A stretch of DNA of 50,850 nt, taken from IMG/VR virus record IMGVR_UViG_2526164600_000002, one strand, 5' to 3'. The notes beneath the pieces are model-generated. The model saw nothing but the letters and a program-made list of their open reading frames with translations, searched no databases and was not told the DNA's origin. The translations under genes and the position numbers were made by a program. Below are positions 36,959 to 43,854 of the stretch, piece after piece; position 1 is the stretch's first letter; each line of letters starts with the position of its first letter. This DNA comes from a virus. Taxonomy: Duplodnaviria; Heunggongvirae; Uroviricota; Caudoviricetes.

Positions 36959-37114
36959 TTACTCCTCAGGTTCGTAAGCTGTGAAGACAGCGACCTCCGT
37001 CTGGCCGGTTCGGATTCGTACCTCGCAGAGGTCTTTCCTCGTTACCAGTGCCGTCACTATGACGGTTAAACAGATGACGATCAGGGCGATTAACATCGCC
37101 TTTTGCTGCTTCAT
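36959..37114 (-). CDS. hokD: Hok-family type I toxin HokD (RelF), 51 aa
   Basis: Manual translation MKQQKAMLIALIVICLTVIVTALVTRKDLCEVRIRTGQTEVAVFTAYEPEE; below the 60-aa ORF-track cutoff. Confidence 0.85.
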   Translation of the reverse strand: MKQQKAMLIALIVICLTVIVTALVTRKDLCEVRIRTGQTEVAVFTAYEPEE

Positions 37115-37185
37115 AGCCTGCTTCTCCTGTCAACGCAAAGCAGAAGTGTCACCTTCGGTGCGAAACAGAGATGTCATGCTTTGGT

Positions 37186-39013: not shown

Positions 39014-40354
39014 TCAATCTTTTTTATCGGGATCAGGCTTCTTTTTAGGTAACTTCGGGGGCTTAACTTGCTGATGACTTTGCGTTCGGCGCGTAAGCCA
39101 GGGATGGTCAGCTTTAGGTTTAACATAGTATTTTGAGCGTAAATCAATACGGGCATTATCCACTCGTTCATGGACACTCTTTTCATCATCCAGTGGTATA
39201 GGCTCCGGGCCATCAACATACTTTTCCCAGCCCAGCGCTTTCCCGTCATACAGAACGTTAATTTCACCGTCAAAGTTCTCGCATACAGTAACAACCGAAT
39301 GCCTAAGTCGATATCCCCGGCTCTCACTGCGTACCTGAAACGCACTGCTTTTGTACTGGAAAGTGAGATTTTTAGACAGAACGCGCTTCGCCTGTAGGCT
39401 GAAGATATAACCCAGTTCCTCTTCAGAATGGTGCACATCAAGATGAGCATTATCAGTAGTACGAGGCGACGTAGCGAACCGGTTGTTATAGGCTTCAATA
39501 AAGGTCGGCAACCATGCATTTGCTGTTTCAATATCACTGATATTCTGAAGCCGCATTTCTTTGACCAGCCTGTCCTGTAGTGTCTGATTGGCGCGCTCTA
39601 CCCGCCCTTTTGCCTGCGGGCTGTTGGCATGGATTGGCTCGATGCCCAGTGTCTTTATCGCACGAGTGAACTGGGTCAGCTCACCTTCCCGCTCTGGGTT
39701 ATTTACCCTGAATATACTGTGTCTATCAGAGTAGAGAGCGAGCGGTACGCCACGATCATTAAGGTAACCCCGGAGGGTTTCCATGTAAGCCCGGGTTGTT
39801 TCAGCAGGCACAAAACGCAACGCCATCAACGCACTGGTGGCATCATCAATGAAAACGATCAGTGTACATCTGGGGCCTCGATTTTCAAACCAGTCATGAG
39901 GTGAGCCATCAATCTGGATCAGTTCACCGTAAGATGGTCGTCGCATGCGGCGTTGATATATACGGGCAATTTTACGACGGCGTTCACGCCATAACCCCTC
40001 TTCTATCATCCACTTTCTGAGAGTTTCAACGGATAAAGATAAACCGTGTATCTCGCGCAATTTTTCGCACGCAAACGTAGGTCCAAAATCAGCGTAACGG
40101 CCTTTGAGGAGTGAAATTACTGTTGCTCTGAATTCAGTAGAAAAGGAATTATTAGGACGCTTTCCACGTCGGTGGGAAACCAGACCAGAAGGCCCTTCAT
40201 TTCTATACCGTTGCACCAGACGTTTAACCTGCCGAATAGAAATGCCAATGCGTGCCGCAGCTTGTTCCTGAGTAATATGTCGATTAATTGACTCCTGAAT
40301 AATCTGAAGTCGGTGGAGTTCCTTATGACTCATCGTAACAGTCTCTTTGATCAT
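39014..40354 (-). CDS. DDE (integrase-core) transposase, IS481-like family (tentative), N-terminal HTH
   Basis: ORF track 446 aa; HTH region ARIGISIRQVKRLVQRYRNEG; DDE-type motifs IQIDGS...YSDRHSIF...PQAKGRVERANQTL. Confidence 0.8.
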   Translation of the reverse strand: MIKETVTMSHKELHRLQIIQESINRHITQEQAAARIGISIRQVKRLVQRYRNEGPSGLVSHRRGKRPNNSFSTEFRATVISLLKGRYADFGPTFACEKLREIHGLSLSVETLRKWMIEEGLWRERRRKIARIYQRRMRRPSYGELIQIDGSPHDWFENRGPRCTLIVFIDDATSALMALRFVPAETTRAYMETLRGYLNDRGVPLALYSDRHSIFRVNNPEREGELTQFTRAIKTLGIEPIHANSPQAKGRVERANQTLQDRLVKEMRLQNISDIETANAWLPTFIEAYNNRFATSPRTTDNAHLDVHHSEEELGYIFSLQAKRVLSKNLTFQYKSSAFQVRSESRGYRLRHSVVTVCENFDGEINVLYDGKALGWEKYVDGPEPIPLDDEKSVHERVDNARIDLRSKYYVKPKADHPWLTRRTQSHQQVKPPKLPKKKPDPDKKD

Positions 40355-40729
40355 GAAAAATCCCCCAGAGAATTGTCTGGGGACATTTTAGAATGGTTCA
40401 AAGGGGACATTACAGCTTGGTGTTAACAATAGCCTGCTTCTCCGTGCCTTTCGGCACGTAAGAGGCTAACCTACATGTGTCTAGCATGAAATTGGCCTCA
40501 GATTAATGTTAAGCGTCTTGCAGGACGCGTAATGTTAACTGGGGCTTTTCTCTATCTGCCGTTGGTGTCCATGCCCGAGGCAGATAGCCTCAAGCACCCG
40601 CAGTCATTCTACTTAACTAAGATTTCCCCGCAAACCGTTTTTGTCCAGCACAGTAAATATCCAACTAAACCAATGGAGTTCGCTGTATTTACCGCCAGTA
40701 TTCAATGCACATGACCGCCATGAACACCC

Positions 40730-40867: not shown

Positions 40868-42018
40868 TATTCCTCCTACAATCAATGTGCAATTACATTT
40901 AAACACACCTCAATTTGGCCGGACATATAAATATCTAAACCAGAAAAAATCACTTACATAGCGTTACAAACTCTTTAGTCTAAAGGTTCATCGTAAAACA
41001 TTCCCCATACTTATCAGTCCGTTCCGCGCCAGGTAGCTCATTGCCTTATCTGGCAACCTGTAATCAGGTTTCCGCTTTTTCAGTTGGCTGGTCGTTTAAC
41101 CGACATAGTTAATCCATTAATCTAGTTGCCGGATGTTGGTGGATTTTCGCGTTTTAGTTGTTCATAAAAGTGCACAGCTTTAACCAGTTCTTCTGATGTA
41201 ACCGGGACTGGTGAGGCAGTGAATAAGGCCTGAATTTGATAGTTCGGCCTGTCGTTACAATCCTCTTTTTTCGGTACATATTTCCAGTCACCAGACCACT
41301 ACTTCCCCTGAAAGTCCGTAACGCTTTTTTCACGTAGCGATATCGCCATGCCACTGGTTTTGCTTGCCCCGCCGTTTCATGCCCTTCCTGATAATTAATC
41401 TCGCTCATTCATCGCCCCACTCATCACAATATGCTTCGACCGGAGTTTTTCCCGCTTCATAGTCATCACGTTAGGATTCGACATCAGCAGCACTTCCACC
41501 GCGTAATTCACCATAGTCCATTAATAGTTCATCCCGCTCTTCAAAACTGATGTTATATTTAGCTGAACAAAAATCAGCCACTTTGTTCTTCCTCATCGTC
41601 TTTTATTTCGTGGTATGAGTAATTGCAGTAGTTAAAGAAAATTTCTTATGCTCCGTCATGAATTTCATCAGGTGTTGCGTCATCGTCCACTTCGAATACA
41701 TCCTCAAAATCTCCACCAGCTATTTCCGTTTCAATAATAATTTTGAACTTTCGCATTTCACTACCGCCCTTTCGGGCGGCCTCCTGATGTTCTGAGGGTG
41801 CAGAAATCCATCCGGTTAAGGATTAAGTTTTATTTACAGAACTGAATTTAATTATTCAGATATACGTATCTGTAACCTTACGAATCTACTCACTGGATGC
41901 CTCTTTCATAAAAATAATCCAGTGGGTTTTATCGTTTTTTCCCTGTTCGTTGACAGATAACAGGCTTTCTATCTGTCAGTGCCAGAATCTGGCTTACCGG
42001 TATTTGCGTTTCATTCCA

Positions 42019-42375
42019 TTAAAAAATCAGAACGCCGTGCGGCCTCAACACCCGAAAAGCTTCTTTAAATCTCTGTCGCAAATCATCACGCCAGGCATCT
42101 TTATTCAGCCGTCCATATTTCTTTCCCATCCAGGCGTTATCACCAACACGCTCAAGATGCGGAGGGTCTAATACAACCATCGAAAAAGATGCGTCTGCAA
42201 ATGATAATGCACGAAAATCTGCGATAATGTCAGGGCTGATAATCAAGCGTCTCCCATTGCGTAATGTGTATCCTTCTTTTCTGATATCGCTGAATATCGC
42301 CCGTTTGTCAGACTTATCGAACCAGAACATGCGGCTGCCACAGCACATATCAAGAATGGTTGCCGGTGCACTCAC
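42019..42375 (-). CDS. Putative SAM-dependent methyltransferase fragment (motif I-like LDMCCGS and motif IV-like DPPH), probably truncated
   Basis: ORF track 118 aa; motifs read from translation; too short for a complete methyltransferase. Confidence 0.45.
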   Translation of the reverse strand: MSAPATILDMCCGSRMFWFDKSDKRAIFSDIRKEGYTLRNGRRLIISPDIIADFRALSFADASFSMVVLDPPHLERVGDNAWMGKKYGRLNKDAWRDDLRQRFKEAFRVLRPHGVLIF

Positions 42376-42794
42376 TGCGCCACGTCCTGAAAATTACCCT
42401 GATAGAAAGCCAGTATGCGCTGCATAACTTCGCTCTTCCGGCACTCGCGACAGATTATGTTTAGGCGACTGTCGTAGCGACGTATTTCTCCGTCAGGTGA
42501 TGACCAGATAAGGTCCGGATCAACCATAGCAGGTTTCTTCACCTTTGCCCTCGAGAGTTTTTTGCGGGCGTTTTGCCAGTCCTTACGCGCCTGTTCAGAG
42601 GGGAATAACCCGTAGCCGGAGTTGTATACATCGCCACTGGCTACCAGCTCTCTGGCAAGAACGCTCATCAGATATCTAGTCGCACCTGTTTTAGCTTCCA
42701 GTTGCCGTAACGTCTCACGGCCGCTCTGGCGCACGAGTTCCACCACCTGCCATTTAATTTTTTCCCGCTCTTCTTGTGTAAAAACTTTTGCCAC
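42372..42794 (-). CDS. Hypothetical protein, 140 aa, downstream of replication gene
   Basis: ORF track; stop overlaps the start of the methyltransferase-like ORF. Confidence 0.45.
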   Translation of the reverse strand: MAKVFTQEEREKIKWQVVELVRQSGRETLRQLEAKTGATRYLMSVLARELVASGDVYNSGYGLFPSEQARKDWQNARKKLSRAKVKKPAMVDPDLIWSSPDGEIRRYDSRLNIICRECRKSEVMQRILAFYQGNFQDVAQ

Positions 42795-42834: not shown

Positions 42835-43854
42835 TTATCCTCTGAAACCAGGCGGAATTTCTGTATCCGGTTCAGAAATATGATTAACACAACGCTGTAC
42901 AGGTGAACGTCCCAGGCGGATGACCAGTTCGTCCCATTTTTCGCGGAGCTTTGACGGGCTCATGATGTTTTTTACCCAGAATGGATCTCGCTGAACCCGA
43001 CCAAACATTTCGCAAATTTGTCTGTGGCTTCTGCCATCCAGCATCCGCATTGTGCGCACGTCATTGGCCCAGGCAGTCCAGTTAGGCTCTTTTGGTCGCA
43101 TGATCTCGCCATCATCACTGGCTGCCTGTTCGTAGAGACCCACGATCCGCCCCCAGATCCACTGCGCACACGCCAAATCCTCCCTGCTACCCCACTGGCG
43201 TTTTTTCGCACTAAACACAACCGCGTCGGAGTTCCGGGTTAAAGAATCCTGTTCAGTCGTCTGCGGGTCCGGTTGCGAAGCTTCCGGACGAAAAGTGTTT
43301 TTATTCTCTGTAGTAATCTCTGTTGTATTCTCTGTAAGATCATCAGGCCATTTTGACCCGATGACATTGGGTCGTTTTGAACCAATGGAGCGTTTCATTT
43401 TGACCTCTTCCATCGTGTCATTTTGACCTGATGGAGCGGCGCATTTTGAACCGATGGATTCGCTCAATTTGCCACCATCTAAAAGCTCGCTCCCATAGTT
43501 GATCGTGTAGAAATTGGTCATATCGCGCTTTGATTTATTGAGCTTTTCACAACGCAAAAGCCCCAGCGTTTTCAGACTTGCAAACGCGCGCTTTAACGTT
43601 GACTCTGACCAGAATGGGAACTGTTCCAGCCATTGTTCCGTTGTGTTATAAATCCAGCGAACACCATCACATTCCATGCCGGAGTTGGTATCTCTCAACC
43701 AGTAGTGCAGTTGTTGCAAAACAATGGCTTCGTTTAAGCCAATTTTCATTGCCAGCTGCGTGTTTATAACCAGTGGGCGTTCAGCAAAAAGAAGGCTCAT
43801 AATTCCATCCAGCTTTTTGTTGGTATTGCTGTCGATACGCAAGCTTGAAAGCAA
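42835..43854 (-). CDS. Phage replication initiation protein (lambda O-like replisome organiser) with internal iterons
   Basis: ORF track 339 aa; N-terminal HTH-like region; repeated SIGSK peptide encoded by DNA iterons; position after cro-like gene. Confidence 0.7.
   Translation of the reverse strand: MLSSLRIDSNTNKKLDGIMSLLFAERPLVINTQLAMKIGLNEAIVLQQLHYWLRDTNSGMECDGVRWIYNTTEQWLEQFPFWSESTLKRAFASLKTLGLLRCEKLNKSKRDMTNFYTINYGSELLDGGKLSESIGSKCAAPSGQNDTMEEVKMKRSIGSKRPNVIGSKWPDDLTENTTEITTENKNTFRPEASQPDPQTTEQDSLTRNSDAVVFSAKKRQWGSREDLACAQWIWGRIVGLYEQAASDDGEIMRPKEPNWTAWANDVRTMRMLDGRSHRQICEMFGRVQRDPFWVKNIMSPSKLREKWDELVIRLGRSPVQRCVNHISEPDTEIPPGFRG
43349..43460. repeat. Five directly repeated iterons (consensus CATTTTGA(C/A)C-GATGGAG, about 23-bp period) inside the replication gene; candidate phage origin
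   Basis: Repeats read at about 43349, 43373, 43396, 43419, 43442; AT-rich tract on the 3' side (43290-43340). Confidence 0.7.

Follow-up and report, generated by a model that had tools for sequence, protein, structure and literature searches.

Does a short reading frame with two methyltransferase motifs, found in a prophage of Escherichia coli, encode a working enzyme or the front part of a lost one, and is the gene that it overlaps its partner? The question arose from two ORFs in the window, i.e. the whole stretch of viral DNA of 50,850 nucleotides that was analysed. An earlier note had left two readings of the shorter ORF side by side, a truncated phage DNA methyltransferase or a small unusual enzyme, and had regarded the longer ORF as an unknown partner gene.

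Reading frames and conserved motifs

Both ORFs lie on the minus strand and start with GTG. The 118-aa ORF occupies 42019..42375 and the 140-aa ORF 42372..42794. The GTG start of the former (42375-42373) and the TGA stop of the latter (42374-42372) form a 4-nt GTGA overlap, and an AGGA sequence, a plausible Shine-Dalgarno element, was read 9 nt 5' of the GTG. The motif I region ILDMCCGS comprises residues 7-14 of the 118-aa ORF (42334..42357, minus strand), corresponds to the SAM-binding loop after strand 1 and aligns with the start of Pfam Methyltransf_25. Motif IV, DPPH, comprises residues 70-73 (42157..42168, minus strand), directly after strand 4, and lies 56 residues past the end of ILDMCCGS. 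The ORF list thus placed both ORFs, both motifs and the overlap where the earlier note had put them.

In an alignment of 118 sequences of the family, D9, D30, C12, D70, P71, P72 and H73 were invariant, and C11 and G13 nearly invariant. D30 stands at the end of the strand formed by residues 26-30 in the structure model described below. In the class I methyltransferase fold, the acidic residue at the end of strand 2 binds the ribose of SAM; from this general knowledge of the fold, D30 is presumably the ribose-binding residue of the present family. The paired cysteines C11 and C12, which were called invariant in the intact family, adjoin the SAM loop; the same was noted for C39 in many members.

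The 118-aa ORF scored 203 bits against phrog_954 and 157 bits against the PADLOC profile MTase_II PDLC03288 (profile positions 3-122 of 169). By sequence comparison, its motifs are not a chance resemblance, since the residues are invariant in 118 relatives and since the phrog_954 and PADLOC scores agree with them. Pfam is nearly blind to this family: Methyltransf_11 reached 22.7 bits at a cutoff of 21.2, and N6_N4_Mtase was not significant for the window ORF (E 0.12). No NCBIfam model for the family was found.

A methyltransferase gene with two lesions

A protein search with the 118-aa ORF returned 1,909 relatives. The intact ones have 157-167 aa, carry the name 'class I SAM-dependent methyltransferase' and align without gaps to residues 1-118; they then continue as KWNETQIPVSQIL.LTD.KP.I.QRTGK.DKTHWIIF.K, with KWNETQIP...KTHWIIF(M/V)K past residue 118. 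The comparison with full-length homologues bore out the suspicion that the ORF ends too early. Intact methyltransferases of E. coli/Salmonella prophages (P0008, P0011 and P0016; WP_000145667.1, strain 95_0274) have 160-162 aa and the same motifs, and are 84-89% identical to the window ORF over residues 1-118. In P0008 and P0011, the GTG start overlaps the DUF977 stop as in the window. Relative to these intact genes, the window allele carries 11 replacements specific to its lineage, besides the TAA at codon 119 and the +1 insertion.

The lesions were called by aligning the window DNA with five intact E. coli homologue genes. On this alignment, the whole pseudogene of a class I SAM-dependent (DPPH-type) phage methyltransferase of ~162 aa spans 41886..42375 on the minus strand, i.e. 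489 nt plus one inserted nucleotide. The first lesion is a nonsense substitution at codon 119 (42019..42021, minus strand; DNA alignment column 360), where a single A->T change has turned AAA (Lys119), present in all intact homologues, into TAA. The second is an A6 run (41935..41940, minus strand) with one A more than the intact genes, which was recognized as an alignment gap and by reading the sequence and which causes a +1 frameshift. In-frame translation across the first lesion yields ...GVLIF*WNETQIPVSQILALTDRKPVICQRTGKKR*..., and deletion of one A from the A6 run brings back ...QRTGKNDKTHWIIFMKEASSE*. The remnant past the lesions is otherwise colinear with the intact genes up to the normal stop near 41886.

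We therefore consider it very probable that the 118-aa ORF does not encode a working enzyme but is what remains, about the first three-quarters, of an inactivated phage methyltransferase gene of roughly 161 codons. Of the two readings left by the earlier note, the truncated phage methyltransferase is retained, with ~43 C-terminal residues missing relative to full-length homologues; the small unusual enzyme is abandoned, as the missing part persists downstream behind the TAA and the +1 frameshift, which makes the gene a pseudogene. This status is already flagged in reference annotation, where PGAP describes identical DNA as 'SAM-dependent methyltransferase; frameshifted; internal stop', and the case is an ordinary one. 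An entry that counts against the pseudogene reading is WP_001310834.1, a protein record for the 118-aa product in some RefSeq genomes.

The 118-aa ORF keeps its start codon, the Shine-Dalgarno sequence, the coupling overlap and the invariant N-terminal motif residues, and contains no further stops; the fragment is therefore probably still translated, which also speaks against the pseudogene reading. Restoration of the full-length enzyme by recoding, i.e. readthrough at TAA-119 together with a programmed frameshift in the A6 run, was considered as a rescue of the pseudogene, since the TAA follows a T6 run and both homopolymers are slippery. It was rejected as almost certainly wrong: it would take two independent events, slippage by -1 or +1 at the T-run leads into stops within 3-9 codons (readthrough alone keeps the frame), the intact homologues need no such event, and the sequence carries signs of decay.

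Distribution of the lesioned allele

Both lesions are identical in EH53 and in Escherichia phage PhiR42_1, which holds a 99%-identical copy of the locus in a record deposited as a complete genome. Identical DNA was also found in several complete chromosomes of E. coli. Of the 5,426 complete E. coli genomes, 485 matched a 96-nt stretch that covers the two lesions. The match was identical in 90 genomes and fell into the 95-99% band in 385 (listed rows 97.9% and 96.9%), giving about 475 of the 5,426 genomes at an identity of at least 95%. The remaining 10 matches lay at 90-95%, and the one that was inspected was an intact gene in another prophage. Sequencing error was ruled out as the origin of the lesions by their occurrence in both EH53 and PhiR42_1 and by the presence of the stretch in about 475 genomes. 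The lesions are old and not an error.

Fold of the intact protein and loss by truncation

A first AF2 run with a shallow enterobacterial alignment gave a pLDDT of 67; this model was unusable and was replaced after homologues from Firmicutes and Campylobacterota had been added. The resulting AlphaFold model of the intact homologue P0016, based on 118 diverse homologues, had a pLDDT of 92 and a pTM of 0.88. It represents a minimal Rossmann methyltransferase with a single domain of ~160 aa. In the model, strand 1 (residues 7-9) is followed by the CCGS loop, strand 2 (26-30) ends in the invariant D30, a short hairpin (34-46) is the sole insertion, and strand 4 (64-69) is followed by DPPH. Helices 82-87 and 95-109, strand 5 (110-121), a helix (127-131) and strands 6 and 7 (138-143 and 150-156) complete the domain. 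A helix normally follows strand 1 in class I methyltransferases; the P0016 model was without it.

Mapped on this model, the 118-aa fragment retains strands 1-4, two helices and most of strand 5. Truncation at residue 118 takes away strands 6-7 of the seven-stranded sheet, together with the helix before them and the end of strand 5, and the complete sheet with its strand 6-7 hairpin is not found in the window fragment. Seven positions with a conservation of at least 90% are lost at the same time (K119, W120, E122, P138, H151, F155 and K157). Most full-length matches in an all-library HMMER search span query residues 6-158, and the C-terminal third is therefore part of the conserved unit.

Signs of relaxed constraint

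The fragment itself carries the replacements P58S, F69L and G102R at positions that are 95-99% conserved, and the replacing residues are absent among the 118 relatives. The dN of the window allele versus intact alleles was 0.06-0.09; between intact or nearly intact alleles, it was 0.007-0.047. Within the lesioned lineage, four substitutions were counted in the 357 nt of the fragment, three of them non-synonymous (including R76S, L99S and K24E), versus one in 423 nt and one in 966 nt in the two upstream genes. The dN/dS of the window allele against intact alleles was 0.16-0.26, well below 1, which counts against decay; most of the divergence between window and intact alleles probably predates the inactivation, and this ratio therefore does not show selection on the fragment. 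The figures of wear are small, all point in one direction and suggest relaxed constraint on the fragment. Judged by model and alignment, the 118-aa fragment is very unlikely to be an enzyme, because strands and a helix of the core are lost, three near-invariant positions are replaced and dN is raised.

The methyltransferase gene was also lost independently in other prophages. An O157-type copy carries W95* (L005 3146-3619), the gene of P0012 is inactivated by a C-terminal frameshift, and 5' stubs of ~62-68 codons are left in phage HannyBb and in strain CFIAFB20120266 (L002 2934-3140; L006 2982-3167). These different routes of loss indicate that the methyltransferase is dispensable. Next to the 5' stubs (L006 2215-2880, L002 2215-2901), a gene annotated as epoxyqueuosine reductase QueH was observed; such a gene is unusual among lambdoid replication genes and hints that one nucleic-acid-modification module was exchanged for another at this position.

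These data also bear on the proposal that the truncated protein is produced and has a function, either retained or newly acquired, be it by binding or sequestering SAM, as a dominant-negative partner of intact paralogues, or by acting with DUF977. If true, a retained function would explain the 118-aa fragment in about 9% of complete E. coli genomes. It would agree with the intact start, Shine-Dalgarno sequence and coupling overlap, with the preserved motif I, D30 and DPPH, and with an ORF that is unbroken in about 475 genomes and in PhiR42_1. We regard it as quite improbable, however: common descent within one prophage lineage accounts for the spread, with the same lesions in the three alleles checked; three near-invariant positions are filled by residues never seen in the family; substitutions within the lineage are denser and for the most part non-synonymous; the core sheet has lost two strands when mapped on the model; and the different losses elsewhere mark the gene as dispensable. 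A more specific form, in which a widespread Qin-like prophage lineage would retain the fragment as a translated half-methyltransferase that binds SAM or interferes, for instance by poisoning intact paralogues of incoming phages or by working with DUF977, is considered very improbable.

The overlapping DUF977 gene

The 140-aa ORF matched PF06163 with 101.4 bits (cutoff 22.1; E 5.5e-29), with residues 1-136 aligned to profile positions 1-134 of 134, and it also matched phrog_142, which is labelled 'Ren-like exclusion protein'. RefSeq lists the 140-aa DUF977 product in identical DNA as WP_001151260.1. The ORF is an intact gene of the YdaW/LygF type. It follows an O-like replication gene as in Rac-like phages, in whose records DUF977 is annotated as LygF; the counterpart in the Rac prophage of E. 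coli K-12 is YdaW. The supposed unknown partner is a full-length DUF977/YdaW/LygF protein and not a dedicated partner of the methyltransferase. Overexpressed ydaW of K-12 has been reported to block the retron-Sen2 toxin RcaT (bioRxiv 10.1101/2020.06.22.160242).

Intact DUF977->methyltransferase pairs with the identical 4-nt overlap occur at three other loci (L013, L014 and L016), and the window therefore holds a decayed copy of this arrangement. The recurrence of intact overlapping pairs, the winged-helix fold reported for the N-terminus of DUF977 (PMC2686095) and a methyltransferase of ~160 residues without target-recognition domain would all suit a two-component enzyme, broken here, in which DUF977 supplies DNA recognition. 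The distribution of the two genes speaks against this and leaves it extremely improbable. The methyltransferase occurs without DUF977 in six P22/lambda-like prophage contexts, in Listeria phage A118 (after a DnaD-like loader), in Vibrio phage X29 (after the integrase) and in Helicobacter and Porphyromonas phages. E. coli carries DUF977 without the methyltransferase far more often: a DUF977 search matched part of the query in 4,197 genomes and covered at least 80% of it in 484. Because the methyltransferase adjoins unrelated genes in many phages, DUF977 is not an obligate partner; by gene order, it is a frequent but non-obligatory neighbour.

Prophage setting

The locus lies in a lambdoid E. 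coli prophage of the Qin/Rac type, within the early-right (replication) operon. The gene order there is DicA-like repressor, DicC/Cro-like gene, YdaT-like gene, O-like replication protein, DUF977 and methyltransferase ORF. The O-like replication initiation protein is encoded just upstream in the same operon (42835..43854, minus strand; phrog_391, 6e-91). Its start in the ORF list is TTG (339 aa), while PGAP and the phage record place it 18 codons downstream (~43800, 321 aa); the gene overlaps the YdaT/CII-like gene.

Downstream of the pseudogene lie DUF7167 and a frameshifted hypothetical gene, both decayed, and an ISEsa1-family transposase, followed by ydfW, flxA, relBE and hokD. On the other side of the operon are ydfABC, dicB, exonuclease, excisionase and integrase. 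Within window positions 41400-41890 (minus strand), the DUF7167 ORF is annotated as intact in some genomes and with an internal stop in others, and the hypothetical gene is described by PGAP as 'frameshifted; internal stop' on identical DNA. This fits a segment between DUF977 and the IS that is under no selection. The IS-family transposase and the neighbouring pseudogenes mark a decaying prophage, which supports the reading as an inactivated gene.

The Rfam model of the sok antitoxin RNA (RF01794) was matched over its full length (104 bits, E 1e-23) at window positions 40428-40599 on the minus strand, between the ISEsa1-family transposase ORF (39014-40354) and the decayed ORFs. No intact hok-like ORF was seen downstream of this RNA, and the RefSeq annotation of identical DNA lists nothing there. 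Probably the IS insertion has interrupted a hok/sok locus here; it is distinct from the annotated hokD farther left (about 36960-37115). The Rfam scan and the promoter/terminator scan of the locus gave no match overlapping either the 118-aa or the 140-aa ORF.

The intact methyltransferase family

The intact protein P0016 scored 295 bits against phrog_954 ('DNA methyltransferase'), 245 bits against PADLOC MTase_II PDLC03288 and 166 bits against oMTase PDLC03730. Its DPPH at residues 70-73 is invariant in the 118 sequences and is preceded by strand 64-69 in the model, as expected of motif IV. Neither a target-recognition nor any other DNA-binding module was found in the model of the intact protein, and no extra Pfam domain was detected. 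The all-library HMMER search yielded 2,008 clusters at 50% identity (E<=0.001); by these sequence matches, the family has very many members and is characteristic of temperate phages across phyla.

A distant example is gp50 of Listeria phage A118 (ORF50, 154 aa), which belongs to the same single-domain family, has the invariant DPPH and lies in the early/replication region. Homologues of gp50 occur in phages of Streptococcus, Enterococcus, Staphylococcus, Vibrio, Acinetobacter, Gordonia, Porphyromonas and Helicobacter. Such homologues across phyla are 50-65% identical to the intact E. coli protein, and their genes are intact. The labels of A118-type proteins ('methylates cytosine residues', 'DNA N-4 cytosine methyltransferase', 'DNA methyltransferase') are record annotations and putative. 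A knockout has been described for Listeria lmo2316, a methylase of an A118-like prophage with a putative relation to gp50 (PMC4627465), and was not used as evidence here.

Searches of the PDB by single sequence and by profile gave marginal matches to generic methyltransferases only and no detectably related entry. The intact family appears to be without a solved structure in the PDB. Foldseek with the P0016 model returned generic class I matches such as Bud23, Trm11, M.TaqI and m4,2C synthase at TM 0.45-0.6. Trm11 (tRNA m2G10), M.TaqI (DNA m6A), the archaeal m4,2C synthase, PrmC and TrmM were among the best PDB matches (E about 1e-6 to 1e-4) and share with the family the class I Rossmann fold and the position of the motif after strand 4. 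All five have solved structures and a motif IV of the form (D/N)PP(Y/F/H). A motif IV of the DPPH type after strand 4 is the signature of methylation of exocyclic amino groups.

For the ancestral enzyme, we infer exocyclic-amino methylation of nucleic acid, most likely of phage DNA, by which restriction would be evaded. A DNA m6A or m4C modification for this purpose is plausible as the most likely ancestral role because of the invariant DPPH after strand 4 and the early-gene position; the names of the matched PHROG and PADLOC profiles point the same way. A literature search covering LygF, DUF977, ydaW, the DPPH motif, A118 gp50, minimal phage methyltransferases and lmo2316 retrieved no functional study tied to the methyltransferase family, and no reported substrate was found for the family.

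Origin of the fragment and significance

The history of the locus is reconstructed as follows. The ancestor was a single-domain class I SAM-dependent methyltransferase of 160-162 aa with the DxCCGS loop, D30 and DPPH as motif IV. It was expressed as part of the early replication operon in a lambdoid prophage of the Qin/Rac type, and its translation was probably coupled to that of the DUF977 gene upstream via the GTGA overlap. In the lineage of the window, Lys119 (AAA) became TAA, and the A-run further down gained one base. The possible product ends within strand 5 and so should neither fold nor catalyse.

The assignment as a pseudogene settles an ambiguity of annotation, as the same gene is treated as a protein in some RefSeq genomes and as a pseudogene in others. 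For the biology of the Qin/Rac-like cryptic prophage, one more step of decay has been recorded, which matters little. As a by-product, the locus is a pointer to the intact family of very small phage methyltransferases, of which the window contains a dead copy only. This family is very abundant, consists of proteins of ~155-160 aa without a target-recognition domain, and retains ~50% identity from E. coli to Listeria phages.
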